Assembly: GCA_965261885.1 (NCBI GenBank)
Contig: CBDHDY010000039.1
Location: 10,802 to 74,801 of the forward strand
Direction of reading: 5' to 3'
Origin: Dehalococcoidia bacterium
GTDB taxonomy: Bacteria > Chloroflexota > Dehalococcoidia > Lucifugimonadales > UBA3495
DNA length: 64,000 bases
Positions within the stretch are counted from its first letter, which is position 1, and every line of letters starts with the position of its first letter. The notes under the pieces are model-generated. The model had not been told where the DNA came from and made no database searches. It saw nothing but the letters and a program-made list of their open reading frames with translations. This document shows, one piece after another, positions 21,651 through 35,967 of this stretch. The translations under genes and the position numbers were made by a program.

Positions 21651-24600
21651 CTAAATTCCTCCCAGCGCCTCTCGCTCTTCTTCCTCTTCATTGGCGCCCA
21701 CGATGGCATCGTCCAGTTGTCGGAGCAAGGTCTTGGCCCAGCGACTCACCTCTGGCTTCGAATGTTGGAGGAGCCTGCCAATTGGCTCTTTGTAGAGGGT
21801 GTAGTAGTTAGTTCTTGACCCGAACCAACCGAAGGTTCGGATATTGCTCTCTACGGCTTGCCGGACGTCATCGCGGTCCCCGAACTCATTGAGCAGGTGG
21901 GCCATGACTGGATGCAGCGATCGCTCTGAGGCCGCGGTCTCCTGCGTTGTGAGGACTGGTACGAGCTTCGCGGTGTATGCCGGTGCACGTTCGGGGTGGG
22001 CGTGGCACCAGGCGAACAAGGTGGACTCCGGCAGGCTTAGAATCACGGGATTAGGCTTGCGTTCAATAGCGTATTGGTCTCCCAAGATAGAGGTCAAACG
22101 TGAAGCTCTACTTTGGTCGGAGACGATTACTTGGCCAACTAGCGGCCATGCAACCTCGGGAAAGCGCGACAGCAGATCAGAAAGGATCGTCTTTCCTAGG
22201 AAGCCGCAGTCGAAAGCCTCTACATTTGCCAACGCCTTTGCCAGAGCCAACGCCGTATTACTGGCGCAAGAGTCCTGCCTGCCCTTCCGAAGCGTCTCGT
22301 CCATGATTTGCTCAAAGCGATATTGCGATAAATTCCAGTCCCGTGCCGGTTGCCATCTTGTAGAGTTCTCCGCGAGCTTCAAGACTTGAGGATGAAGACC
22401 ATCCAGTTTCTTGGGCGAATTGAAGGCATATTTGTGCATAAGATCCACCGCTGCGGTGAATCCTTCGGCGCTGTGTTCAAGCAGCGTATCGAATAGAGGG
22501 GCAATCTCCCGAGCTGGAATCTCGGCAATTACCCAAGCATGTAGCCATTCGCTCAATCGCAGCGGAGGCAACACACCACCTTTAAGGGCGTCAATTGCCA
22601 GCTGAACATCGGAGGCGTCGATGCTGCTCCTCCCCCAAATCTGAGGCAGTGCCGAAGCAAGTTCGCGTGACCGAGCCGCTCTCTGCTTGAATGCAACCAC
22701 TACGTGCGGATGGTTCGTAGCCAGATGGGTGATGAATCCTGACAGCAAGTCATGGTTACGCTCACCCTCAGGGGCTTCTACAACAGCCTCTATAAATGGC
22801 TCCAACCATTCCAGTGGTGAGCTGGCAAGGTCGGCGACGGCGGCTCCGAATTGATAGGCCATTCTCTGCTGGCCACGGCTGAGTTGAGGCAAGGACGCCG
22901 CAAGAGTTGGTGGCTGCTGCAACAACTCGGCGGCCAATCCGTGCACCGCTTCAACTCGACATTGTTCCAGTAGACGGAAATCTGGTTCCCTGCTCTCAAG
23001 GTCGCCCCACGACATCTCCGTCACCGTCGAACGTATACGCGCCTCCAAGCCCCTAGGCTGCAACTCCTTTAACAGCTCTCTGACCCGCTCGGTTAATTCA
23101 GGGGTCATGTTCTCAGCATCAAAGGCAATAACAGCACGCACGCTCGTCATTCCCTCTGGCCAATAATCCTTCGCAGCACTCACTTCTGAGACAACTTTTT
23201 TCGCTGTATCAATGAACCCCTCACGGATCAGAATGGGCAGAGAATTACCAAGCCCTGAACGAGCAGAAATTCCAGCCAGGTCATCGTTCAAGGCGAACTG
23301 CGCGAGCCGTGTCGCACACCCATCTATGTAATTGACCACCTCTTCTTTGGTGTCCGGGCACCAAGATACCAGTGCTGAGCTAGACCCCTGGGACTCCGGG
23401 CCCAGCATCCGCTCAAAGGTACCTATCTCGCAGCCGCTGATCAGAGCATCACAAATGATCTCGCGCCGAGCAGGGTCGGCAGAGCCCGCGGCCTCATCCA
23501 GGAAAGAGAGTCGAGCAACGCCGTCGGCCGCCGTGCCGCCTAGGAGCATGGGGAAAAGCCCCTTGAATTTGCCGAGAGCGCCGCTTTCCCAACGAAGGTG
23601 CCAGAGGTCACTCTTCGCTGTAAGCCTGGATACAATCTCGTTTTCGTCGGAAGCGACGCGCAGCAAGAGACGCGCGCCCTCCTCAAATGTGTGGACATGG
23701 AAGGCGATCTTCTCCAAGGCCTGGACAAGGGCTCGTCGCGCGTCACTTCTGATTTCAGACAAGTCTTGGACATTTCCGAGTGATCGTTCTATCTGGTCTG
23801 CGACTGCCTCCGGGTCTACCTCGGCAAGGGCAGACCAGACCTCGGTGTAGGCTAACGGAGCGGTCCGTCCCAAACCGTCGAAGGGACCACCACGCCGGCA
23901 AACATGGGAGACCACCTTCCGGGAGACCTCGGTAGTGTTGAGCAGGGCCAGTTGTTTAGCCGCCAATGTCTTGAGACCAGGGCTGATGTCGCCAGACAAC
24001 ACCCTCTCCCAAGTGCTGGCAGGCCACTCTTTCCATTGGCGCTCCGCCAGTTTCATTGCGACCGGCCGTGGTTGGAGAGTGACAAATCTCCCTCGCCGCT
24101 GGACGACCCCTCGGTCGACCAGTTGGGCGACAGCGGCGTATAAGTCCTCGGTGCTGAGGCTGCGTCCCAAGCTGGCGATCTCGCTGAGTTGACCGTCAGC
24201 CTGGGGGCCTACGTCAACCAGACCGAACACAGCCAGCAGCGCCGCCGACTTGCGCAGCAACTCAGGGTCTCGGGGACTTCGTCCCAAGACGAAGGTGTCG
24301 ACGAAATGGTCGTCTGTGGCGTGGGCGACGGGTCTTGATTCGCTCCACGTCTTCCCGACGCGGACCGCAACCTCCGGGAAGCCCTTGGAAAAATGCTCAA
24401 GCCGACTCCGGTCCTCGTAAGGAAGGCCCGAGGAGACATGGCTGATGATGCCTTCTGTGACGGGGGGCGGAGCCTCCTCGATCCTCAATGTGGTCCCGTC
24501 CAGAGTTCCAATGGGAATTTCGTTGTCGATGGTCACCAACGACAGATGGCTACCCTGGTGCAAAACCATGGCTGAGAGCCCTTGATGGGACTCAGGACCG

Positions 24601-25718
24601 CAGTTGTCGACGACCACGACGGCGCGCTGGGGCGTAACTGCCAGGGTCTGAACAACCTCGCTTATAGCCGCGTAGCTGGTCTCAGTCTCGATGGCGTATA
24701 TGATCAGGTCGCTGGCAGAATTGCTTGCCTCATCTTCACCCTCCGTAGCTCTGAGGGCTTCAAGCACTAGACGGGACTTGCCGACGCCAGACAATCCGAC
24801 TAAGCGCAGGATTTGTCGGGGCGTCTCTACTATATCGCGGAGGCGGTCGCGCAAAGAGGACAAGCGCGCATCTTCCACCCACGGGGATTGATCGTGTTCG
24901 GCGCGGCCAGCCCAGTGGTTCCAGGAGCGGAAGGGACCGATGGTTCCGTGTGTCTGTTCCTTCACCCATGTGGCGACTGCAGGGTGGCTATTTACCCACG
25001 TGGCGATCTGTTCAGCGTCCCAAAAGTCGACCTGCTCGTCTTTGATGGTCATGCCGGTATAGCGGAGTTCTTTGCGAATGCGGGCTTTTCGGTGATTGAT
25101 TTCCCTCCCACTGTAGGGGTGCGCGCAGAGCATGATGTAGTGGCCGCCAATCTCGAGGGCAGAAAATATCATGTCCTTGACTGCGCCCTTGATCAGGACG
25201 TCCTTAGCTGCCGCTCCCGGCGATATCTTGCCGGCCTTCAACTGAAAGTGGTTGAGCCGGGAAGGAAGGAAGGACGTGCGCTCCGGGCCAGCCGTCCATG
25301 TGATGCTCCCGTCCTCCCCACCGTCTGGGACATGAATATTGCTAGCCACCCGAATGCCATCAGCCGGGAGACTGTGGGTTTGGGCTTCGGCACTCAGCAG
25401 CTTCCTCAGGAGCAGTGGCAGGTCCCGTTCTCGCAGAACCGAAATGTGGCCTCCGGTTACCTCAAACGGGCCGGATCCGAAAGCGATGACTGGTCGAGGC
25501 ATACCACCCCCCAGAGTGATAATCCCGGCGGGATTGGCCTCCAACAACCGCAACAGATTTATAACTGAGGCGGCGGGCTTTACGGTTCCGGCTTCGTACT
25601 TAGTGAAGGAGCTGGGGCCGCCTCCGATGAGTTCACCAGCCTCCACCTGTGATAGGCCCAAGCGTTCCCGAATGGAGCGGATCTCACTAGGTGCGAGTTC
25701 TTGTCTAATCCTAGACAT
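21651..25718 (-). CDS. XRE/MqsA-like HTH + PD-(D/E)xK-like nuclease + STAND-type P-loop NTPase + long helical repeat region (Avs/NLR-like defence protein)
   Basis: N-terminal IRSIRERLGLSQVEAGELIGGGPSSFTKYEAG, then PDGGEDG...HFQLKAG, Walker A GLSGVGKS, Walker B VVVVDNC, and ~850 aa alpha-helical C-terminus. ATG at 25718 with GAGG RBS; ~1355 aa. Confidence 0.8.
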   Translation of the reverse strand: MSRIRQELAPSEIRSIRERLGLSQVEAGELIGGGPSSFTKYEAGTVKPAASVINLLRLLEANPAGIITLGGGMPRPVIAFGSGPFEVTGGHISVLRERDLPLLLRKLLSAEAQTHSLPADGIRVASNIHVPDGGEDGSITWTAGPERTSFLPSRLNHFQLKAGKISPGAAAKDVLIKGAVKDMIFSALEIGGHYIMLCAHPYSGREINHRKARIRKELRYTGMTIKDEQVDFWDAEQIATWVNSHPAVATWVKEQTHGTIGPFRSWNHWAGRAEHDQSPWVEDARLSSLRDRLRDIVETPRQILRLVGLSGVGKSRLVLEALRATEGEDEASNSASDLIIYAIETETSYAAISEVVQTLAVTPQRAVVVVDNCGPESHQGLSAMVLHQGSHLSLVTIDNEIPIGTLDGTTLRIEEAPPPVTEGIISHVSSGLPYEDRSRLEHFSKGFPEVAVRVGKTWSESRPVAHATDDHFVDTFVLGRSPRDPELLRKSAALLAVFGLVDVGPQADGQLSEIASLGRSLSTEDLYAAVAQLVDRGVVQRRGRFVTLQPRPVAMKLAERQWKEWPASTWERVLSGDISPGLKTLAAKQLALLNTTEVSRKVVSHVCRRGGPFDGLGRTAPLAYTEVWSALAEVDPEAVADQIERSLGNVQDLSEIRSDARRALVQALEKIAFHVHTFEEGARLLLRVASDENEIVSRLTAKSDLWHLRWESGALGKFKGLFPMLLGGTAADGVARLSFLDEAAGSADPARREIICDALISGCEIGTFERMLGPESQGSSSALVSWCPDTKEEVVNYIDGCATRLAQFALNDDLAGISARSGLGNSLPILIREGFIDTAKKVVSEVSAAKDYWPEGMTSVRAVIAFDAENMTPELTERVRELLKELQPRGLEARIRSTVTEMSWGDLESREPDFRLLEQCRVEAVHGLAAELLQQPPTLAASLPQLSRGQQRMAYQFGAAVADLASSPLEWLEPFIEAVVEAPEGERNHDLLSGFITHLATNHPHVVVAFKQRAARSRELASALPQIWGRSSIDASDVQLAIDALKGGVLPPLRLSEWLHAWVIAEIPAREIAPLFDTLLEHSAEGFTAAVDLMHKYAFNSPKKLDGLHPQVLKLAENSTRWQPARDWNLSQYRFEQIMDETLRKGRQDSCASNTALALAKALANVEAFDCGFLGKTILSDLLSRFPEVAWPLVGQVIVSDQSRASRLTSILGDQYAIERKPNPVILSLPESTLFAWCHAHPERAPAYTAKLVPVLTTQETAASERSLHPVMAHLLNEFGDRDDVRQAVESNIRTFGWFGSRTNYYTLYKEPIGRLLQHSKPEVSRWAKTLLRQLDDAIVGANEEEEEREALGGI

Positions 25719-25752
25719 ATTGACCTCTAAGATGTAATGCACTATGGTATCA

Positions 25753-25763
25753 ACCATTATGGT
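25753..25763. promoter_or_regulatory. Palindrome ACCATTATGGT, candidate operator in the divergent promoter region
   Basis: Perfect 5-1-5 palindrome ~35 bp upstream of the STAND gene start, with a partial repeat ACTATGGT at 25741-25748. Confidence 0.3.
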
Positions 25764-25949
25764 CATATTCGCTGAGCAAAAGCAACGCTCTTAGAGACGA
25801 TGGGCGTGAATGGCTGGGCTGCGGGGACTTAGCTCGGCGTTGGGAACGAGGATTGACGAGTTGAACCCTGTGAGTCGACACTGAATGCTGGCCATTTGAC
25901 CACACGGGGTTCTGGGCTCAGGCGGCCAATCAACTCAGCGGTGAATGAC

Positions 25950-28900
25950 ATGGAAAACCCGTTCTACGACCGGCCGATACTGAACTCGCCCTATGATTAC
26001 CCCTACCGGCACTGGGAGCTGGACGAGACTGGGCAGCCTACCCAGCAGGTCATTGAGAGCCGACGTGGGGCCGAGTTCATTACGCCCATTCCCAAGCCGA
26101 GGCAGCGGGGAAGGGCGCGCGGTGGACGCCAGGAGCAACTGGTCTTCGACGAAGGGCAGGGTCTGTCCACGGCAGAGCAACAGTATGACGTTACTGCCGC
26201 CGTCAACGAAATTCGCCGGTACGTCGACCAGTGGCGCGACATCCCCAACCCGCGGGACTGGGGTGTGACGCCGGAGACGGCCCTGCTGCTCCAGCACTGG
26301 CGGCACCACAAGTTCAGCCATTACCGTCCCTTCTTCTGCCAGGTCGAAGCCGTTGAGACGTTAATCTGGCTGACCGAGGTCGCGCCGCGGCTCGGGCAGG
26401 GGGAAAGGCTGGCACTCCAGCGTCTGGAGAGCGCCAGCCTGGAGGCGAACCCGGAACTGTTGCGGGTCGCGCTGAAGCTGGCAACCGGGGCGGGCAAGAC
26501 CACGGTGATGGCCATGATCATCGCGTGGCAGACAATCAACGCCGTCCGGCATCCCAACAGCCGGAGGTTCACGCGGGGCTTCCTGGTGGTCACCCCCGGA
26601 ATTACCATCCGGGACCGGCTGCGGGTGCTGCAGCCTAACGACCCCGACAGCTACTACGCCAGCAGGGAACTGGTGCCCACCGATATGCTGGGCGACCTGC
26701 AGCGGGCCAGGATAGTCATCACCAACTATCATGGCCTCCGCCCCAGGGAGCGATTGTCGATATCCAGCGGCGGGAGGGACTTGTTGCAAGGGCCGGGCGA
26801 GCCCATCGAGACCGTGGAGTCCGAGGGCCAGATGATGCAGCGGGTGATGCCCGAACTGATGGCCCTCAAGAACATCATGGTCCTAAACGACGAGGGCCAC
26901 CATTGCTATCGCCAAAAGCCCGGTGAAGATGACGAGGGCCCTCTGACTGGTGAGGACAAGCGGGAGGCAGACCAGAACACCGAGGAAGCCAGGGTGTGGC
27001 TCTCCGGGCTGGAGATGGTCAAGAGGAAACTTGGTGTACGTCAAGTGGTGGACCTGTCGGCCACGCCCTTCTTCCTGCGTGGCTCCGGCTACGCGGAGGG
27101 CACTCTGTTCCCCTGGACCGCCAGCGACTTCTCGCTCATGGACGCCATCGAATCCGGGATCGTCAAGCTCCCGCGGGTTCCGGTGGCGGACAACATCCCG
27201 GGAGCCGACGTACCGGTGTTCCGAAACCTGTGGGAGCACATCCGCAAGGACATGCCTCGCGCGGGAAGGGGCCGGTCGGGTGACCTGGACCCACTGGACC
27301 TTCCCACGCCGTTACAGACTGCCCTAGAGGCCCTGTACGGCCACTACGAGAAGACTTTCAATGAGTGGGAGGCGGACGGCACTCCCTGTCCACCCTGTTT
27401 CATTGTCGTTTGCAACAACACGGCCACATCCAAGCTGGTCTACGACTATATATCAGGGTTCGAGCGCACCAACGAGGACGGCACGACCTCGGTTGTTAAC
27501 GGGAGACTCGCACTGTTTCGGAACTTCGATGAATACAACAACCGCTACTCCGTTCCGCGCACATTGCTGATCGACAGCCATCAGTTGGAGTCCGGGGAAA
27601 AACTCAGCGATGACTTCCGCCGCGCCGCTGCCGATCTGATAGAGCGGTTTCGGCGGGAACGCCAGGAGCGCACTGGAAATCGCGAGGAGGCCGACAAGAT
27701 CTCGGAGCAGGAACTCCTGCGCGAAGCAATGAACACGGTCGGCAAGGAAGGGCGGTTAGGACAGAACATACGCTGCGTGGTGTCTGTGTCCATGCTGACC
27801 GAGGGGTGGGACGCCAGCACCGTAACCCACGTCCTGGGAGTCCGGGCCTTTGGAACGCAGCTCTTGTGCGAGCAGGTGGTGGGTCGGGCCTTGAGGCGCC
27901 AGTCCTACGAGTTGAACGAGGGCAACAAATTCGACGTCGAGTACGCCGACGTGCTGGGTATTCCCTTCGACTTCACCGCCCGTCCGGTCGTGGTAGGCCC
28001 GGGCAAGCCGCGGCAGACGGTGCAGGTGAGGGCGATGCGGCCCGAGCGGGACCACCTCGAGATCACGTTCCCGAGAGTAGCCGGCTACCGGGAGGATCCA
28101 CCCAAAGAGGACTTGGTCGCCAATTTCACCGGTGACTCACGGCTGGACTTGACGCCAGACCTGGTGGGGCCAACACAGACCAGGAATGAAGGCATTATCG
28201 GCGAGGGAGTGGATCTGAACTTGGTACATACCGGCGACCTGCGCATGTCGACACTGGTGCTGCACCTGACAAAGCGGTTGCTGGAAACCAAGTGGCGGGA
28301 TCCCAACGAGGAGATGAAGCTGCACCTGTTCGGCAAGCTGCGGAACGTGGTCAAGGAGTGGCTGGACAACTATCTGGACTGCAGGGGTGGGACCTATCCG
28401 GCGCAGCTGATGTACCAGTCGCTGGCGGACATGGCCTGCAACCGCATCACCGCCGCCATCACCAGCAGGTACGGCGAGCGGTCCGTCAAGGCGCTGCTGG
28501 ACTCGTTCAACGCCACCGGCTCAACTCGCAACGTGAACTTCACCACCTCGCGGGAGGGATTGTGGGCCACCGACGCCCGCAGGTGCCACGTTAACTATGT
28601 TGTGCTGGACAGCGACTGGGAGGCCGAGTTCTGCAGGGTGGTGGAGTCGCACCCCTCCGTAAGGGCCTACGTTAAGAACCACAACCTGGGCCTGGAGGTG
28701 CCGTACCTGTATGGCTCCACGCCCCGGCGCTATTTCCCCGACTTTATTCTGCTGGTGAATGAAGGGAACGAAGACCCGCTCCACCTTATCGTCGAGATCA
28801 AGGGTTACCGGGGCGAGGACGCCAAGGAAAAGAAGAACACCATGGAAGCCTACTGGCTTCCGGGTGTGAACGCCCTCGGCAGCTACGGTCGGTGGGCCTT

Positions 28901-29120
28901 CGCCGAGTTCACCGACGTATTCGACATTGAGGCTGGCCTGCGGCAGGTAATTGAGTCGCACCAAAGAGAACACGGAAATAGATCGCCTGACTATAGCGGT
29001 CTCAGTTTCAAGGAACTGCTGGTATCTGGTCCTTCGTTTGACGGTCTGGAACTGACGCGATCTGCCGACTACGGACGCGATGTTTCTTTTCTCTATGACG
29101 ACGGCGGCGAGTCCCATTAG
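25950..29120 (+). CDS. res: Type III restriction enzyme Res subunit (BPTD_3080-like) with C-terminal antitoxin-like extension
   Basis: PILNSPY..P.RHWELDE N-terminus, LKLATGAGKT, LNDEGHHCY, DLSATP, SVSMLTEGWDA, EQVVGRALRR, nuclease YFPDF...IVEIKG. About 50 extra C-terminal residues. Confidence 0.92.
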   Translation: MENPFYDRPILNSPYDYPYRHWELDETGQPTQQVIESRRGAEFITPIPKPRQRGRARGGRQEQLVFDEGQGLSTAEQQYDVTAAVNEIRRYVDQWRDIPNPRDWGVTPETALLLQHWRHHKFSHYRPFFCQVEAVETLIWLTEVAPRLGQGERLALQRLESASLEANPELLRVALKLATGAGKTTVMAMIIAWQTINAVRHPNSRRFTRGFLVVTPGITIRDRLRVLQPNDPDSYYASRELVPTDMLGDLQRARIVITNYHGLRPRERLSISSGGRDLLQGPGEPIETVESEGQMMQRVMPELMALKNIMVLNDEGHHCYRQKPGEDDEGPLTGEDKREADQNTEEARVWLSGLEMVKRKLGVRQVVDLSATPFFLRGSGYAEGTLFPWTASDFSLMDAIESGIVKLPRVPVADNIPGADVPVFRNLWEHIRKDMPRAGRGRSGDLDPLDLPTPLQTALEALYGHYEKTFNEWEADGTPCPPCFIVVCNNTATSKLVYDYISGFERTNEDGTTSVVNGRLALFRNFDEYNNRYSVPRTLLIDSHQLESGEKLSDDFRRAAADLIERFRRERQERTGNREEADKISEQELLREAMNTVGKEGRLGQNIRCVVSVSMLTEGWDASTVTHVLGVRAFGTQLLCEQVVGRALRRQSYELNEGNKFDVEYADVLGIPFDFTARPVVVGPGKPRQTVQVRAMRPERDHLEITFPRVAGYREDPPKEDLVANFTGDSRLDLTPDLVGPTQTRNEGIIGEGVDLNLVHTGDLRMSTLVLHLTKRLLETKWRDPNEEMKLHLFGKLRNVVKEWLDNYLDCRGGTYPAQLMYQSLADMACNRITAAITSRYGERSVKALLDSFNATGSTRNVNFTTSREGLWATDARRCHVNYVVLDSDWEAEFCRVVESHPSVRAYVKNHNLGLEVPYLYGSTPRRYFPDFILLVNEGNEDPLHLIVEIKGYRGEDAKEKKNTMEAYWLPGVNALGSYGRWAFAEFTDVFDIEAGLRQVIESHQREHGNRSPDYSGLSFKELLVSGPSFDGLELTRSADYGRDVSFLYDDGGESH

Positions 29121-29545
29121 TGCATTTGCTTGATACAAACGTCGTCTCAGAATCGCGGAAGCGGGAGAGATGCGACGAGAATGTGACTACCTGGTATGCC
29201 AGCATTCCAGACGGAGACCTGTTTCTCAGTGTTCTGACATTGGGCGAAATTCGCAAAGGAATCGTGCTGGTCCGCGACCGTGCCCCCGGGCAGGCTGAAG
29301 CTCTTGAAAGTTGGCTGACGTTCGTGAAACAGAACTACGAAGGTCGGATTTTGCCAATCGACGCTGACATTTCGGACGCCTGGGGCCAAATGAACTATGT
29401 TCGAAACGTTCCCGTAGTCGACGGCCTTCTTGCCGCCACTGCTAAGGTTCACAATCTAACGTTGGTAACTCGCAATATTCAGCACATGCAGGGCCTGGGC
29501 GCGAGCTTGCTCGATCCCTTTGCCCCTGCTACCGGAGGGCAATAG
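29120..29545 (+). CDS. vapC: PIN domain VapC-family ribonuclease toxin
   Basis: LLDTNVVSE, TLGEIRKG, VDGLLAATA, LVTRN show all acidic PIN residues. The GTG start overlaps the res TAG stop. Confidence 0.93.
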   Translation: MHLLDTNVVSESRKRERCDENVTTWYASIPDGDLFLSVLTLGEIRKGIVLVRDRAPGQAEALESWLTFVKQNYEGRILPIDADISDAWGQMNYVRNVPVVDGLLAATAKVHNLTLVTRNIQHMQGLGASLLDPFAPATGGQ

Positions 29546-29547
29546 CC

Positions 29548-32406
29548 ATGCCCCGAGCACGACGCAACCGCAGCGCCGCCGGAAAGTCGGTGGAGGCGCT
29601 GCGCCACGAGGCGGACACCCGCACCAACATCCCCACGGCCGAGTACCAGTCGATGGTGGAGGATGACACGGAGTCGCCCGTCCGCGTAGCCTACCAGCGG
29701 CGCAACCGCGACCTGGACCCGCAGCTGGTCTGGCGGGGCAAGGACGAACAGGACCTGGATGACCTGGTGGTCAACGTGCCGCCCCTGTACATCCAGGAGA
29801 AGGTGCACCCCAAGGTACTGATCGGCGACCTGCTGCGCCAGTCTCGGAACGGCAGCCAGCCGTCCGAGTACCAGGTGGACATGTTCGCCGACTTCAACGG
29901 GCTGCCCGAGGGCGCCGACCGCACCGAGTTCTACCAGCACGAGGGCTACTGGCAGAACCGCATGGTCCTGGGCGACAGTCTGCAGGTGATGGCCTCGCTG
30001 GCCGAGCGGGAGGGCTTGCAGGGCAAGGTGCAGTGCATCTACATCGATCCGCCCTACGGCATCCGCTTCAACTCCAACTTCCAGTGGTCCACCACCAGCC
30101 GCGACGTGCGCGACGGCAACCGCCAGCACATCACCCGCGAGCCCGAGCAGGTCAAGGCCTTCCGCGACACCTGGCGCGACGGCATCCACTCCTACCTGAC
30201 CTACCTGCGGGACCGCCTCACCGTGGCCCGCGACCTGCTGGCCGACTCTGGCTCCATCTTTGTGCAGATCGGCGATGAGAACGTCCACCGGGTGCGTGTG
30301 GTGTTGGATGAGGTGTTTGGGGAAAAGAATTTTGTAAGCCTAATATCTATTCAAACAACAACTGGTTTCCAGTCTGAATATGTTGGAAATATCTCGGACT
30401 ATGTTCTTTGGTATGCGAAGAGAAAGGAGACTGGCAAATCTAAGAATCCGTACTTTAGGAAAAACTTCCAAATAGGTGAGGGTAATGCGCGATGGCTGAT
30501 GTTTCAGGACTTCACACACCGAGGGGTAACAGCGTCCGAAAGGAGAGCCGGCGAAATTCCTGATGGATCAAAACCCTACGCGCCAGACAATCTAATTTCG
30601 CAGGGTCGATCTCGCAGTCAGCAGCCGTTTGCTTTTCAAAATAAGACCGACGATCCGTGGAATAAGAACTCCCATTGGAAGGCCAATTATCCGGCAGGAA
30701 TGAAGCGTCTAGCGAAGGCTGGACGGTTGCATACTGCGGAAAATTCTATACGTTTTGTACGGTATCACGCGGATTTTGAATTGGCTGTTCATGGCAATAT
30801 TTGGACCGATACGAGTACAGGCAATTTCACAGACGACAAGACCTATGTCGTACAAACTAACTCCAAGGTAATAGAACGTTGCATCCTGATGACCACTGAC
30901 CCCGGCGACCTGGTGCTGGATCCCACCTGCGGCTCCGGCACCGCTGCCTACGTGGCCGAGCAGTGGGGGCGGCGGTGGATCACCATCGACACCTCCCGAG
31001 TCGCCCTGGCTCTGGCCCGCGCCCGCATCATGGGCGCCCGCTACCCCTACTACATCCTCGCCGACAGCCGGGACGGGCAGCAGAAGGAAGCCGAGATCTC
31101 CCGCCGCGCCCCGTCGGAGATGCCCACCTACGGCAACGTGCGGCAGGGGTTCGTCTACGAGCGGGTGCCCCACATCACCCTGAGGGACATCGCCAACAAC
31201 GCCGAGATCGACGTCATCTGGGAGGAGTACCAGGAGAAGCTGGAGCCGCTCCGGGAGGAGCTGAACCGGGCGCTGGAGAACACGTGGGAGGAGTGGGAGA
31301 TTCCGCGTGACGCCTACGAGTCGTGGTCAGAGGAGACCTTGGAACTGCACCGGCAGTGGTGGGAGCAGCGCATCGCCCGGCAGAGGGAGATCGACGCCTC
31401 CATCGCTGCCCGGGCCGAGTACGAGTACCTGTACGACAAGCCCTACGAGGACCGCAGCAGGGTGCGGGTGGCCGGCCCGTTCACCGTGGAGAGCATCTCG
31501 CCCCACCGGGTGCTGGGCGTAGACGAGAACGGCGAGGTGATCGACGGCATCGCCGAGGCCCGCAACGGCTACGGCACGGGCTACGACTTCGGCCAGATCA
31601 TCCTGGACAACCTGAGGCGCTCCGGCGTGCAGCAGGCCCACCGCGAGGACCGCATCACCTTCACGTCGCTGACGCCATGGCCGGGCCGGTTTGTCTGCGC
31701 CGATGGCCGGTACGTCGAGGGCGGCAGCGGGGATGACGACGATGACGCGACAACCGGTCCCGAACGGAGGGCGGCGGTGTTCATTGGCCCCGAGTTCGGC
31801 ACGGTGTCGCGTCCCGACCTGGTGGAGGCGGCGCGGGAGGCAGCCGACGGCGGTTTCGACGTGCTCATCGCCTGCGCCTTCAACTACGACGCCCACACCA
31901 CGGAGTTCGAGAGCCTGGGGCGGGTGCCGGTGCTGAAGGCCCGCATGAACGCCGACCTGCACATGGCCAGCGAGCTGCGCAACACCGGCAGCGGCAACCT
32001 GTTCGTCATCTTCGGCGAGCCGGACATAGATGTGCTGGACGCCGGGGACGGGCAGGTCAAGGTGCGGGTGAACGGCGTGGACGTGTTCCACCCCAACACC
32101 GGCGAGGTGCGCAGCGACGGACCGGAGGGCATCGCCTGCTGGTTCATCGACACCGACTACAACCAGGAGAGCTTCTTCGTCCGCCACGCCTACTTCCTAG
32201 GCGCCGGCGACCCCTACAAGTCGCTGAAGACCACCCTCAAGGCCGAAATCGACGAGGACGCCTGGGCCACGCTGCACAGCGCAACCTCCCGCCCATTCCC
32301 GCGCCCGGAGTCGGGGCGGATAGCCGTCAAGGTCATCAACCACCTGGGCGACGAGGTCATGAAAGTGTTCCGGGGGGGGGTGACGTGGCCGGTTGGCCTG
32401 ATATGA
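29548..32406 (+). CDS. mod: Type III R-M DNA methyltransferase (Mod)
   Basis: YIDPPYG catalytic motif IV, VLDPTCGSGT SAM-binding motif I (beta class), and a C-terminus ending IAVKVINHLGDEVMKVF. 952 aa. Confidence 0.93.
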   Translation: MPRARRNRSAAGKSVEALRHEADTRTNIPTAEYQSMVEDDTESPVRVAYQRRNRDLDPQLVWRGKDEQDLDDLVVNVPPLYIQEKVHPKVLIGDLLRQSRNGSQPSEYQVDMFADFNGLPEGADRTEFYQHEGYWQNRMVLGDSLQVMASLAEREGLQGKVQCIYIDPPYGIRFNSNFQWSTTSRDVRDGNRQHITREPEQVKAFRDTWRDGIHSYLTYLRDRLTVARDLLADSGSIFVQIGDENVHRVRVVLDEVFGEKNFVSLISIQTTTGFQSEYVGNISDYVLWYAKRKETGKSKNPYFRKNFQIGEGNARWLMFQDFTHRGVTASERRAGEIPDGSKPYAPDNLISQGRSRSQQPFAFQNKTDDPWNKNSHWKANYPAGMKRLAKAGRLHTAENSIRFVRYHADFELAVHGNIWTDTSTGNFTDDKTYVVQTNSKVIERCILMTTDPGDLVLDPTCGSGTAAYVAEQWGRRWITIDTSRVALALARARIMGARYPYYILADSRDGQQKEAEISRRAPSEMPTYGNVRQGFVYERVPHITLRDIANNAEIDVIWEEYQEKLEPLREELNRALENTWEEWEIPRDAYESWSEETLELHRQWWEQRIARQREIDASIAARAEYEYLYDKPYEDRSRVRVAGPFTVESISPHRVLGVDENGEVIDGIAEARNGYGTGYDFGQIILDNLRRSGVQQAHREDRITFTSLTPWPGRFVCADGRYVEGGSGDDDDDATTGPERRAAVFIGPEFGTVSRPDLVEAAREAADGGFDVLIACAFNYDAHTTEFESLGRVPVLKARMNADLHMASELRNTGSGNLFVIFGEPDIDVLDAGDGQVKVRVNGVDVFHPNTGEVRSDGPEGIACWFIDTDYNQESFFVRHAYFLGAGDPYKSLKTTLKAEIDEDAWATLHSATSRPFPRPESGRIAVKVINHLGDEVMKVFRGGVTWPVGLI

Positions 32407-32458
32407 ATTGCGCCACTATGCGTGTAATTTTGGAACTCAAACTGGCAACGTGGATCAG

Positions 32459-33826
32459 ATGATGCTTTACCGACCATTTGCTGAACGACTTGACGATGTT
32501 TCTCCGGAGGAACTCGATCGGCTCAAGGGGGTTCACGAGGGGTGGTACGTAGAATACAAGGAAAAACTTGTCTCCAATAGGGACTTGGCCAAGAGCCTGT
32601 CGGCATTCGCCAACCAGTATGGTGGCTGGTTGTTCTTGGGTGTCAAGGAGGATGCCCAAGATAATGTAGCGGCTAGCTTTCCAGGAATCCCTGATTCAGA
32701 AATACAGAGCGTCTTAGATTCACTAAGAAACTCGGCCAAAGATTTGTTGAACCCCACCGTCTATTATAATGTTAGGAAATTTGAAGGCCCTATCGGTTCA
32801 ATAGGACTTCCTGCGGGGCGGACAATAGTAGTAGTCCAAATACCCGAAGGCCCGAACTCACCCTACATTCACAATGACGGGCGAATTTACCGTAGGGTCG
32901 GTGATTCATCTCAACCTACACCCGTAACAGACCGCACGACATTCGACATCTTGGCTCAAAGGGGAGAGGAAGCTAGACTAAGGCTTGCCGAAAGGGTCCT
33001 ATGGAGCCCGGCGATCTCACAGGCTGAAGAGGAACAGTCGTTCCTACACCTTAGCATCCTTTCTGATCCTTACGAAACCATGGGGCACTGGTATAGTGGT
33101 AGTTTTGCAGACTTTTCTACAATTATGCAAGAGTGGACACTGCCTTTCGACAACATTTTTTCTACCTCGAATGGGTTTATTGCGAGGCAAGTAAACCAAA
33201 ATAACCCGATCTATAGGGTATTCACATGGCATTTCGACAGGCAGTGCCACTCGTTTGTAACCATACCTATTCCCACGATTCAGGCATCCTTTGGAGATCC
33301 CATATGGGACAATTATACAATCGGAGACCGTTTTGTAGATGAACTAGTGCGTAGAGGAATAACCTTTTCTAGAATATTAGATTTGAATGCGATAATCGAC
33401 ATTATCGGATCAATAATGAGGCGACATCGGATATTGACAGGAAATGCAAAGGTCACTGGGCCCTTTTACATGAAATCTCATCTGGAAAACATATGGAGAT
33501 GTATCCCATTTGTTGACAATTCTGCGTATTTGCAACATGTATGTAAGTTTGGTTTTCCGGTAATTCAAGACTCGAGCTTAGTCGTACCACCGGGTAAATC
33601 GCTCGAAACTTTCGTAGTGTCTCCAGAGATAGCGACAATACCTTCTGAAGAAGAGCTTCTATCCTATGATGGCCCAATACGTTTGAGTATGATTATCCTT
33701 AATGCCCTTGGAATGCCAATGGAAGTCCTTGCTCGGTCAATAGATGAACTTCACGGAATGGGCAAACGGAGAATGGCTGCTCAGATTAATATTAACGATA
33801 ATCCTGAACCAGGCGTTACATCTTGA
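32459..33826 (+). CDS. AlbA_2 (Schlafen-like) domain protein with uncharacterised C-terminal domain
   Basis: EGWYVEYKE...LAKSLSAFANQYGGWLFLGVKE ... YRRVGDSS. A/T-rich compared with its neighbours. Confidence 0.85.
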   Translation: MMLYRPFAERLDDVSPEELDRLKGVHEGWYVEYKEKLVSNRDLAKSLSAFANQYGGWLFLGVKEDAQDNVAASFPGIPDSEIQSVLDSLRNSAKDLLNPTVYYNVRKFEGPIGSIGLPAGRTIVVVQIPEGPNSPYIHNDGRIYRRVGDSSQPTPVTDRTTFDILAQRGEEARLRLAERVLWSPAISQAEEEQSFLHLSILSDPYETMGHWYSGSFADFSTIMQEWTLPFDNIFSTSNGFIARQVNQNNPIYRVFTWHFDRQCHSFVTIPIPTIQASFGDPIWDNYTIGDRFVDELVRRGITFSRILDLNAIIDIIGSIMRRHRILTGNAKVTGPFYMKSHLENIWRCIPFVDNSAYLQHVCKFGFPVIQDSSLVVPPGKSLETFVVSPEIATIPSEEELLSYDGPIRLSMIILNALGMPMEVLARSIDELHGMGKRRMAAQININDNPEPGVTS

Positions 33827-33888: not shown

Positions 33889-35967
33889 GTGCAATTTCGC
33901 ATAGCCGACACCTTCACCGCCAGCCTCGCCAAGCTGCCCAACGACCAGCAGAGGGCGGCGAAGACCACCGCCTTCGACCTGCAGACCAACATCGCCCATC
34001 CCAGCCTCAGCCTGCATCGTGTGACCGGCACCAGGGACCCCGGCTTCTGGTCGGCGAGGGTGAACCTCGTCCTGCGCATCATCCTGCACCGAGCTGGGGA
34101 GAACGTCGTTCTCTGCTACGTGGACAGCCACGACGACGCCTACCGCTGGGCGGAGCGCCGTCGTCTGGAGACGCACCCCACCACCGGCGCAGCGCAGCTG
34201 GTGGAGTTGCGGGAGGTGGTGCAGGAAGTGGTCGTTCCGGTCTACGTGGAGACCGAGCAGCAGGCTCCCGCTAAGCCGTTGCCCTTCGCCCGGATCCCCC
34301 GCGAGCAACTGCTGGGGTACGGCGTGCCTGAAGAGTGGCTAGACGACGTCAGGGCCGCCACCGAGGATAGCGTGCTGGACCTGGCAGACCACCTGCCGGC
34401 CGAGGCCGCTGAGGCCCTGCTGGAACTGGCCGTGGGCAGGACTCCGCAGTCGTCGCTACCCGTACCGGCGGGAGGGGACCCCTTCAGCCACCCCGACGCG
34501 ATGCGTCGCTTCCGCGTCATGAACAACGTCGAGGAACTGGCAGCGGCCCTGGAGTACCCGTGGGAACGGTGGACTGTCTTCCTGCACCCGGACCAGTCGG
34601 GAATCGTAGAAAGAAACTACAACGGCCCGGCCAGGGTGTCCGGCTCCGCGGGCACCGGCAAGACCGTTGTCGCCCTCCACCGGGCGGCTCACCTGGCCAG
34701 GTCCAACCCGGACGCGCGGGTGCTGCTGACCACCTTCTCCGACACGCTGGCCAACCAGTTGCGAACCAAGCTCGGGTTCTTGATGAACAATGAACCCGAG
34801 GCGTTCGCTAGGCTCGACGTCCAGTCACTGGACGCTGTGGGCCTGAACCTCTACGAAGCACATTGTGGCGTGCCGGCATTGGTGGGACGGGAGACAGTTG
34901 AGGAACTACTTCAAGATGCCGCCGCCGCAGTGGGAACCAACTTTGCCTTGACATTTCTGATGTCAGAATGGGAGCGAGTGATTGACGCCTGGCAGTTGGA
35001 GGCCTGGGACAACTACCGGGACGTTCGCCGCATCGGCCGGTATAGAAGGCTGTCTGAGGCCCAGCGAGAGGCGCTGTGGCCGATGTTCGAGCAGGTCAAG
35101 GCAGGACTTCGGGAGGGAGGGTTGATAACCTGGGCGGGAATGTTCGGTCGGCTGACTGAGGAAGTCGCTGGACAGGTGTCTGCGCCGTATCAGTACGTCG
35201 TTGTCGATGAAGCTCAGGACGTCAGCGTTCCCGAGCTGAGATTTCTCGCTGCCTTGGCCGGTGGCACACCGAACGGCCTCTTTTTCGCTGGAGACCTCGG
35301 GCAACGAATATTCCAACAGCCATTCTCTTGGCGGGAACTTGGAGTAGACGTGCGAGGCCGATCACAGTCCCTGCGGATCAACTACCGCACTTCGCACCAG
35401 ATCAGGACCCAGGCTGACCGCTTGTTGGATCCCGAGTTGTCCGATGTGGACGGGAACACGGAAGGGAGGAAGGGAACCGTCTCGGTCTTTAACGGACCGA
35501 ACCCAACCGTGCTGGTGCTGGATGACGGGGAGGCGGAATCCGTCGCAGTTGGCGAGTGGCTGAGGGCGAGAGTCCACGACGGCCTGAACTCCGACGAGAT
35601 GAGCGTTTTCGTCCGGTCCCCGGAGCAAATAGACCGGGCCGTGGCCGCCGTGAAACACGCCGAGTTGCAGAACGCGGTACTTGATGATCGTGCTGGGGAA
35701 GTCGAGGGTTCTGTAATCGTCGCCACGATGCACCTTGCTAAGGGTCTTGAGTTCCGGGCAGTTGCGGTGATGGCCTGTGACGGCGAGGTTATCCCACTCC
35801 AATCCAGGGTCGAGTCAATCGTCGACGAGGCGGACTTGGAGGAGGTCTACAACACTGAGCGGAACCTGCTCTACGTCGCCTGCACCCGAGCCCGGGACCA
35901 CCTGCTGGTAACCGGGGTCAAGCCCGTTTCCGAGTTCCTGGATGACCTTGTGATCAACGACAATTAG
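33889..35967 (+). CDS. SF1 UvrD/Rep-like helicase with N-terminal RelE/ParE-like domain
   Basis: N-terminal ~90 aa (F..SLAKLP...SLHRV...FWSARVNLVLRIILH...CYVDSHDDAY). GSAGTGKT, VVDEAQD, GDLGQRIF, NYRT, TMHLAKGLEF, LLYVACTRAR. Confidence 0.88.
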   Translation: MQFRIADTFTASLAKLPNDQQRAAKTTAFDLQTNIAHPSLSLHRVTGTRDPGFWSARVNLVLRIILHRAGENVVLCYVDSHDDAYRWAERRRLETHPTTGAAQLVELREVVQEVVVPVYVETEQQAPAKPLPFARIPREQLLGYGVPEEWLDDVRAATEDSVLDLADHLPAEAAEALLELAVGRTPQSSLPVPAGGDPFSHPDAMRRFRVMNNVEELAAALEYPWERWTVFLHPDQSGIVERNYNGPARVSGSAGTGKTVVALHRAAHLARSNPDARVLLTTFSDTLANQLRTKLGFLMNNEPEAFARLDVQSLDAVGLNLYEAHCGVPALVGRETVEELLQDAAAAVGTNFALTFLMSEWERVIDAWQLEAWDNYRDVRRIGRYRRLSEAQREALWPMFEQVKAGLREGGLITWAGMFGRLTEEVAGQVSAPYQYVVVDEAQDVSVPELRFLAALAGGTPNGLFFAGDLGQRIFQQPFSWRELGVDVRGRSQSLRINYRTSHQIRTQADRLLDPELSDVDGNTEGRKGTVSVFNGPNPTVLVLDDGEAESVAVGEWLRARVHDGLNSDEMSVFVRSPEQIDRAVAAVKHAELQNAVLDDRAGEVEGSVIVATMHLAKGLEFRAVAVMACDGEVIPLQSRVESIVDEADLEEVYNTERNLLYVACTRARDHLLVTGVKPVSEFLDDLVINDN

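Follow-up and report, generated by a model that had tools for sequence, protein, structure and literature searches.

The 64,000-nucleotide window analysed here (contig CBDHDY010000039.1 of assembly GCA_965261885.1, positions 10,802 to 74,801 of the forward strand, from a Dehalococcoidia bacterium) contains a Type III-like restriction-modification (R-M) operon in which a gene for a VapC-type toxin lies between the restriction gene, res, and the methyltransferase gene, mod. The restriction subunit, Res, terminates in a tail that, on the basis of homology, is derived from an antitoxin and that probably neutralises the toxin encoded next to it. The features of the locus, with positions numbered from the start of the window, are as follows.

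25896-29120, + strand: res, open from a TTG at 25896, with the likely start an ATG at 25950
28950-29006, + strand: variable linker from the Res core to the antitoxin motif, IESHQREHGNRSPDYSGLS, lying beyond the family model and differing in length and sequence between loci
29007-29090, + strand: predicted toxin-binding motif of the VapB/Phd type on Res, FKELLVSGPSFDGLELTRSADYGRDVSF, assigned by profile matches to free antitoxins and by invariant columns
29091-29117, + strand: nine-residue C-terminal extension LYDDGGESH, present in type A tails only (defined below)
29118-29122, + strand: TAGTG, the overlap by one base of the res stop and the vapC start, the junction reading CAT TAG TG
29120-29545, + strand: vapC, a FitB-like PIN-domain toxin of 141 residues (PF01850, 7e-12)
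29548-32406, + strand: mod, a Type III-class N6/N4 DNA methyltransferase of 952 residues (PF01555; PADLOC MTase_III PDLC03632, 1354 bits over the full length)

Translated from the ATG at 25950, Res contains 1056 residues, which is the length observed in its relatives. It belongs to the BPTD_3080 family according to the NCBIfam model NF046055, which scores 1307 bits and aligns residues 25-1018 with model positions 2-969 of 970. Note that this residue range, and the range 1019-1074 employed below for the tail, are counted from the TTG at 25896; the numbering of K1021, R1037 and R1043 is that of the 1056-residue protein. Matches to Pfam PF04851 (ResIII) and PF19778 (RE_endonuc) and to the PADLOC model REase_III identify a Type III-like restriction subunit, with a superfamily 2 (SF2) helicase-like ATPase followed by a C-terminal PD-(D/E)xK nuclease, the two elements by which a Type III Res is recognised. 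The models PDLC03632 and PF01555 likewise place the methyltransferase in the Type III class. The model for classical Res proteins, NF012027, matches only weakly (E 2e-4) and in the nuclease region only. To our knowledge, the NF046055 family has not been characterised.

Beyond the end of the family model the res reading frame continues for 56 residues (1019-1074, nucleotides 28950-29117, IESHQREHGNRSPDYSGLSFKELLVSGPSFDGLELTRSADYGRDVSFLYDDGGESH); tail-less Res homologues terminate 4-27 residues past the end point of the match. There is no in-frame ATG, GTG or TTG within the tail. The TAG stop codon of res shares one base with the GTG start codon of vapC, an overlap that is read as translational coupling of vapC to res, and 2 nucleotides separate the vapC stop codon from the mod ATG at 29548. 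Within the codons of the nine-residue extension there is also, ahead of the vapC GTG, a GCGAG-like stretch resembling a Shine-Dalgarno sequence. The initial annotation of this DNA had claimed that Res runs past its nuclease domain into a tail lacking a start codon of its own, and that its TAG overlaps the GTG of an intact VapC positioned between res and mod; it was correct on each count. A VapBC operon is expected to display an antitoxin segment directly upstream of the toxin gene and coupled to it. Such a segment is present here, but it is provided by the 3' end of res rather than by a separate gene: no small antitoxin with an N-terminal DNA-binding domain precedes vapC, and the 1000-residue Res occupies the place of the head. 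The guanine-cytosine (GC) content is 0.52-0.56 over approximately 28900-29500, which corresponds to the tail and vapC, versus 0.60-0.68 in the flanks, a dip that fits an acquired cassette.

Scans of the tail alone against Pfam and NCBIfam gave no match. A profile built from nine tails, A2, was searched against 1.84 billion (1.84e9) representative proteins and produced 20 matches at E < 1e-3, these being Res fragments and small proteins matched at their extreme C-termini. Among the small proteins are P0134 (81 residues, E 5.9e-6), which ends in ...FKDFLMSGPSLEGIDLARDADYGRDIEL at its stop codon, P0135 (80 residues, E 6.5e-6), which ends in ...FKEVLLSGPDFSMLDLTRDEDYGRDVDL at its stop codon, and P0141, P0142, P0143 and P0144 (93, 97, 104 and 76 residues, respectively), with E-values of 1.8e-4 to 4.5e-4. 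The gathering score of the Phd/YefM family, PF02604, is 29.8; P0135 lies above it (30.7 bits) and P0134 below it (25.3 bits). By BLASTP the window tail is 57% identical to P0134 over 28 residues (E 5e-12). The N-terminal fold of PF02604 is absent from the tail, and the part shared is only the C-terminal extension of some Phd/YefM proteins. A further free antitoxin is found in L014 (loci are denoted by L numbers), from a Rhodospirillaceae metagenome-assembled genome (MAG), in which a free-standing VapC, P0117, that is 65% identical to the window VapC is preceded by an overlapping gene for a 94-residue VapB ending in ...LKALLAAAPFDGIDLERIRDTGRKVDL at its stop codon. The N-terminal half of this VapB resembles those of P0141 and P0142. 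In all of the Res tails and free antitoxins aligned, five positions are invariant, namely K1021, L1024, P1028, R1037 and R1043, and the motif occurs once in the window.

The C-terminal module, as portrayed by these alignments, is attached to at least two kinds of DNA-binding head and, in the window, to Res. In antitoxins of the Phd/YefM and VapB class, the C-terminal segment is the toxin-binding part. By homology, then, the Res tail is antitoxin-derived and related to the C-termini of both Phd/YefM-type and VapB-type antitoxins. The likeness to these antitoxins had been proposed in the initial annotation, and the A2 matches at E of about 6e-6, the BLASTP alignment and the L014 VapB all substantiate it. 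A word-indexed search with the tail yielded a sole match, a near-identical 57-residue open reading frame (ORF) from L001; in this metagenome contig of 2x coverage, single-nucleotide deletions before the tail and at the vapC end split off the ORF, and they are read as errors. A likeness of the tail to the FitA segment ...GVELEDVRGRNTDNEVSL was considered as homology and was dropped, for hhalign of the tail profile versus FitA gave no alignment. Stretches matching the tail profile, 4-14 in each and covering approximately profile region 16-39, were also seen in the very large proteins P0127 (5641 residues), P0131, P0132 and P0133; these GPSFDDLDLTR..D.GRD-like repeats are probably an unrelated acidic repeat.

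The closest solved relatives of the window VapC are the FitB entries 2H1C, 2H1O and 2BSQ (E 3e-14). A Foldseek search with the AlphaFold2 model of VapC returned FitB with a template modelling (TM) score of 0.84, followed by the VapCs of Caulobacter, Shigella and Rickettsia. The catalytic residues D5, E43 and D101 are present (columns D50, E88 and D146 of alignment A4). Throughout the VapC alignment, D5 and D101 are invariant and E43 is conserved to at least 90%.

VapC homologues of 71-99% identity (L002-L013) are all found in the order res-vapC-mod with the same stop/start overlap, and the res genes at these loci encode 1056-1062 residues, or a fragment thereof, and end in the tail, with assembly coverage of up to 67x. 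More than 35 independent assemblies, the majority of them Dehalococcoidia MAGs, display the fusion. A scan with the Res core, employing one genome per species, provided 80 loci that represent the nearest relatives of the window Res, Dehalococcoidia MAGs again being dominant, and the end of res and the res-mod interval were read in all of them. VapB-like tails are present in 29 of the 80 and fall into three subtypes, each with its own VapC clade.

Type A: tail ...FKELLVSGPSFDDLDLTR..D.GRDVSFLYDD.... and stop codon; VapC 65-100% identical to that of the window
Type B: tail ...FKELLAAAPLEG[IV]DLTR.RD.PRDIEF and stop codon; VapC 51-57% identical
Type C: tail ...SAKELLASCPIDEEYLVRPREFPRDIDF and stop codon; VapC 55-59% identical

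Every type A tail bears an extension of the LYDDGGESH type; the other two types lack it and end in ...RDIEF at the stop codon. The TAGTG overlap is likewise kept in all type A loci; it is TGATG in types B and C, and the free-standing L014 pair displays GTGA.

A FitB-like vapC lies behind 27 of the 29 VapB-like tails and in none of the other 51 loci (Fisher p = 2.6e-19, a value that ignores shared ancestry). Such a survey of BPTD_3080 homologues for the tail and a downstream vapC had been suggested in the initial annotation, and its outcome is the co-occurrence anticipated there. Among the 80 loci there is neither an intact FitB-like vapC without a tail nor a free-standing FitB-type pair at the res-mod junction. 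The vapC copies of L015, L025 and L032, three of the 27, carry a frameshift, a truncation or an internal stop codon, and in L052 and L056 an NYN-domain gene takes the place of vapC, with approximately 16 nucleotides of the vapC 5' end retained after the Res stop in L056. The NYN-domain (PIN-like) protein contains 241 residues and is encoded behind a type C tail in L052 (7271-7996) and behind a type B tail in L056 (7280-8005). Tails without a vapC had been named at the outset as an observation that would speak against a toxin-antitoxin (TA) relationship. Two of the 29 are of this kind, but L052 and L056 are read as having lost vapC secondarily, by replacement with the NYN gene, and they are not counted as a refutation because toxin loss is what TA logic allows. 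The toxin can be lost, but the antitoxin cannot, as would be expected if the tail serves as an antitoxin. Across the Res-core tree, the class of the junction changes at least 21 times, and all fused tails fall within one clade of 44 rows; changes among related res genes point to exchange of tail and toxin as a unit.

Selection on the tail was estimated by the pooled Nei-Gojobori method from 16-18 type A loci, with the proportion of synonymous differences (pS) approximately 0.55 throughout. The ratio of nonsynonymous to synonymous change (dN/dS) is 0.118 for the 28-codon tail motif and 0.28 for the nine-residue C-terminal extension; vapC and 60 codons from the Res nuclease core yield 0.19 and 0.18, respectively. 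The tail motif is constrained at least as strongly as Res and VapC, and it is under strong purifying selection.

Several loci show the pair in a degraded setting. In L011/L071, which derive from the same genome, Res is split into four ORFs (2041-6199 of L011), the last of which, a 287-residue fragment, keeps the nuclease core and the tail. The first catalytic aspartate of the L011 VapC is changed (LPETN versus LLDTN), and a second complete antitoxin and PIN pair follows this VapC, after which comes a truncated mod. In L006, L007 and L008 (5429-7842), mod encodes only 201-289 residues beside an insertion sequence (IS) of the DDE_Tnp_1 type, and res, tail and vapC are intact; restriction is presumably dead in these three loci though the Res-VapC pair is preserved.

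The FitB-like toxin is one of several lodgers at this site. The res-mod junction hosts at least five kinds of TA cassette, up to three of them in tandem (L028), and two further PIN families occur there both behind fused Res tails and behind free antitoxins.

PIN family ii, fused (L026, L030, L048): Res ends in ...WLADAGGSEPQIEDIPRRRSEL at its stop codon, and a gene for a 124-residue PIN protein comes next in L026 and L030
PIN family ii, free (L038, L025, L028): a 104-110-residue protein ending in ...KWLADAGGSDPDARYVPRRRDEPRQ precedes the same PIN gene
PIN family iii, fused (L023, L024, L027): the Res tail is 122-134 residues, and a gene for a 136-residue PIN protein comes next in L027
PIN family iii, free (L041-L043, L046, L028): proteins of 120-151 residues precede the same PIN gene
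L018-L022: tail-less Res, then a 75-residue antitoxin and a 140-residue PIN toxin
L049, 7090-7747: tail-less Res, then MNT and HepT (a nucleotidyltransferase and a HEPN RNase)
L057: tail-less Res, then an 81-residue protein and a 165-residue PIN toxin
L028, 7146-9190: type A tail and VapC, then a 120-residue antitoxin with a 137-residue PIN protein, then a 110-residue antitoxin with a 123-residue PIN protein

For family ii, the L026 Res tail is 61% identical over 31 residues to the C-terminus of the free 104-residue L038 antitoxin (E 1e-10), and for family iii the L023 Res tail is 40% identical over 72 residues to the free 129-residue L041 antitoxin (E 2e-12). In L048 the start of mod lies only about 60 nucleotides past the res stop, which leaves no room for a PIN gene, and no intact PIN ORF was found in the res-mod interval of L023. 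As read from these alignments, the C-terminus of an antitoxin has been captured by Res at least three separate times, the VapB-type tails included.

The possible contact between tail and toxin was modelled with AlphaFold2. A concatenate of the 45-residue tail and VapC, run without an alignment, was uninformative, with a predicted local distance difference test score (pLDDT) of 37. When 90 VapC homologues were supplied, which gave alignment depth in the VapC part only, the pLDDT rose to 84 and the predicted TM score (pTM) was 0.82. Tail residues 1-20, which include the FKELLVS helix, reached a pLDDT of 80-85 despite the lack of depth there, as opposed to 33 without the VapC alignment. The model suggests that these residues pack against VapC; it is a hint only, given that the covalent link is artificial and the set-up monomeric.

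On the basis of these results we propose, with a probability of about 0.7, that Res neutralises the VapC embedded in its operon through the tail, or in other words that Res is the antitoxin. That Res physically tethers VapC is inferred from the comparative evidence together with the partial structural hint. In the proposed scheme, a vapBC-type cassette would have inserted between the res and mod genes of a Type III-like R-M operon. Its antitoxin would then have lost the DNA-binding head, leaving the toxin-binding peptide as the last 56 residues of Res on a flexible linker. Coupling at TAGTG would cause Res and VapC to be made in step, such that the Res tail could wrap onto VapC as it is made and block the RNase site in the manner of free VapB, FitA and Phd-type antitoxins. 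With the head gone, classical autoregulation would be lost and dosage would follow the R-M operon. VapC would be harmless only while intact, tail-bearing Res is present. If VapC outlives Res, nothing would restrain it after a nonsense or frameshift mutation, after the island has been deleted, or once Res is no longer synthesised. The toxin would thus penalise the loss, truncation or depletion of Res, which would amount to addiction to, or quality control of, res, and possibly to growth arrest when Res synthesis stops.

Several observations weigh against this proposal. The second half of the motif, LELTRSADYGRDVSF (tail residues 22-43), is modelled with a pLDDT below 50. Independent contrasts of tail against vapC on the Res-core tree number only four that are well supported, too few for significance (sign test p of 0.125); with all branches there are 12, and all run in the same direction. 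Searches of Protein Data Bank (PDB) sequences with the A2 profile and with a broader one, A8, gave nothing meaningful, such that no solved antitoxin matches the motif. Since no solved structure shows detectable similarity to the motif, the way in which the tail would block the toxin is deduced from how VapB and FitA antitoxins generally behave, and the picture of an arginine entering the active site would be an analogy only. Finally, the fourth acidic PIN position is occupied by a histidine in the window VapC (TRNIQHM), and the enzyme could be attenuated. Asparagine is found there in some relatives, and histidine or asparagine in most type A copies; aspartate is the residue of the free-standing L014 copy, of types B and C and of another four type A relatives. 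The fourth acidic residue is less conserved in PIN domains than the other three (PMC5499597), and because of this and the retention of D5, E43 and D101, the window VapC is probably active.

An explanation that is doubtful, though still to be taken seriously, holds the fusion to be a neutral by-product: the junction would be a hot spot for TA insertion, and deletions would occasionally fuse the 3' end of an antitoxin gene to res. The tail would still neutralise the toxin, as selfish TA cargo without cross-talk to restriction. The variety of cassettes at the junction, their tandem arrangement in L028 and the foreign character suggested by the GC dip are all in keeping with this explanation, as is the decay or replacement of vapC in L015, L025, L052 and L056. 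It fits less readily with a fusion seen in three PIN families that has persisted over 51-100% identity in VapC and 70-97% identity in the Res core under strong purifying selection, or with the absence of a free-standing FitB-type pair at the site among the 80 loci. It departs from the proposal of Res as antitoxin solely in denying a benefit, a point that sequence data cannot settle.

An unlikely and speculative role, put forward in the initial annotation by analogy, is that of an R-M guardian. VapC would be latent on Res and would be freed once the restriction enzyme is inhibited or destroyed by a phage, through anti-restriction proteins or proteolysis of Res, as a second-line suicide response like that of PrrC-EcoprrI. 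The precedent is apt in that prrC, too, encodes an RNase within an R-M operon, and the restriction enzyme, by associating with PrrC, maintains it in a latent state (PMC1484252, PMC12707154), a form of control like that proposed for VapC on Res. There are also differences. PrrC is an ABC-ATPase/anticodon nuclease that lies between the genes of EcoprrI, a type Ic system, and employs no antitoxin-derived peptide, whereas the window encodes a 141-residue PIN protein in a Type III-like setting; and activation by T4 Stp has been demonstrated for PrrC. The rapid exchange of tail-toxin cassettes, as expected in an arms race, and the location in a defence island, with a PD-Lambda-4_A homologue upstream and genes for a Schlafen protein and a GajB-like helicase downstream, both favour a guardian. 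Yet there is no sign of an anti-restriction sensor in the sequence, and for a peptide attached covalently to a 1000-residue enzyme no release other than proteolysis or dilution is obvious. In addition, the self-sufficient TA pairs beside tail-less Res (L018-L022, L049, L057) indicate that toxins lodge at the junction without needing contact with Res.

More speculative still is a role for the Res C-terminus as a general docking socket for swappable toxin effectors. The restriction complex would sense non-self DNA, or that it is itself being inhibited or degraded, and would then set free a tethered PIN RNase, which might be a dimer spanning two Res subunits, as an effector at the level of RNA. 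A single machine would thereby combine restriction with abortive infection. This idea draws on the three PIN families wired to Res and on cassettes that are exchanged by recombination like specificity modules.

VapC proteins are dimers. It is quite improbable that the window VapC has ceased to be a toxin and serves instead as an attenuated accessory or dimerising subunit docked on the restriction complex via the tail. The histidine or asparagine at the fourth acidic position in most type A copies, the window included, would be in accord with such a function, and a VapC dimer could bridge two Res tails; against it stand the near-invariance of D5, E43 and D101, the aspartate that types B and C, along with several type A copies, retain at the fourth position (the least conserved one, PMC5499597), and the dispensability of vapC in several loci with an intact Res. 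Last, the notion of an artefact or relic, in which an assembly frameshift, as exemplified by the 57-residue ORF of L001 at 2x, hides a separate vapB, or in which the tail is dead and VapB is encoded elsewhere, is scarcely credible: the sequencing error that the initial annotation had allowed for is very unlikely given that more than 35 assemblies, independent of one another and with coverage of up to 67x, agree in frame and overlap, the tail has neither a start codon nor a DNA-binding head, and a relic could not show a dN/dS of 0.12.

Res as a proposed antitoxin differs in several ways from the systems it resembles. As in FitAB and VapBC (2H1C, 2H1O, 2BSQ; C. crescentus VapBC1, 5K8J), a FitB-like PIN toxin is preceded by an antitoxin segment with overlapping stop and start codons, and the motif of the window tail is common to the C-termini of free antitoxins. 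Unlike them, the window has no separate antitoxin gene and no autoregulatory head; the peptide is the C-terminus of a 1056-residue Res, expression is presumably set by the R-M operon, and the motif is not detectably FitA-like. The classical Type III enzymes EcoP1I and EcoP15I share with the window the SF2 helicase-like ATPase, the C-terminal PD-(D/E)xK nuclease and the beta-class N6-adenine/N4-cytosine Mod, but their two-gene mod-res order is not matched by the window order of res-(vapC)-mod followed by a conserved UvrD-like helicase, and the window Mod, of approximately 950 residues, has a long C-terminal extension. An antitoxin element joined covalently to another functional module, rather than a free labile protein, is shared with CapRel(SJ46), in which the antitoxin domain, joined to its own toxin, senses a phage capsid protein; in the window the proposed antitoxin is carried by a defence enzyme of another kind, with the toxin encoded as a polypeptide of its own.

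Matelska et al. (2017; PMC5499597, section 17) described PIN toxins in type I R-M operons whose antitoxin is sometimes "missing", and proposed a different regulation of the toxin; by their account, no direct interaction between TA and R-M components had been shown. Those cases concern type I HsdR/M/S operons, are reported to be poorly conserved and have no fused peptide described, whereas in the window the antitoxin is predicted to lie on Res and the arrangement is conserved. In a 2025 review of host-dependent restriction, the R-M guardians listed are PrrC and PARIS and no others. As far as the searchable literature reveals, no direct link has been documented that would physically tie a TA module to a restriction enzyme. 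Likewise, a description of the fusion, of which the initial annotation had known none, was not found in that literature, beyond the reach of which lie most papers in subscription journals.

The "missing antitoxin" of an R-M-associated PIN toxin is pinned by the proposal to a 28-residue motif on Res, and the idea is directly testable. If Res is the antitoxin, a costly restriction gene would guard itself against inactivating mutations, and defence at the DNA level might be coupled to defence at the RNA level, failure of the first line leading to growth arrest. "Orphan" PIN toxins in defence islands would also be explained. There is a trap for annotation here, in that automatic pipelines would take vapC for an orphan toxin and Res for a restriction enzyme that is slightly longer than usual.

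The remaining genes of the operon and its surroundings are listed below.

32408-33826, + strand: Schlafen/AlbA_2 gene of low GC content, 472 residues (PF04326, 6e-18)
33889-35967, + strand: UvrD/GajB-like superfamily 1 (SF1) helicase, 692 residues (PF00580, PF13361; PADLOC GajB-like)
21651-25766, - strand: divergent gene for a 1371-residue PD-Lambda-4_A homologue (PADLOC, 7e-89)

The helicase gene is also found downstream in L001, L004 and L010 and is a conserved partner of this R-M family. Within mod, the GC content drops to a trough of 0.40-0.51 over 30300-30900, versus about 0.67, which probably marks an exchanged target-recognition region. In L015, the closest relative by Res core, identity in the first 421 residues of Mod is no more than 65%. 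The slot between mod and the helicase gene is variable: it is occupied by a Schlafen/AlbA_2 gene in the window, L004 and L010, and by a gene for a 348-residue protein together with an AbiJ_NTD4 gene in L001 and L003 (L001, 4481-6464). The PD-Lambda-4_A homologue displays an N-terminal helix-turn-helix (HTH)/MqsA-antitoxin-like domain and an AAA/STAND-like region. It also flanks res in L002, L005 and L010, and may be a regular neighbour of the R-M family.

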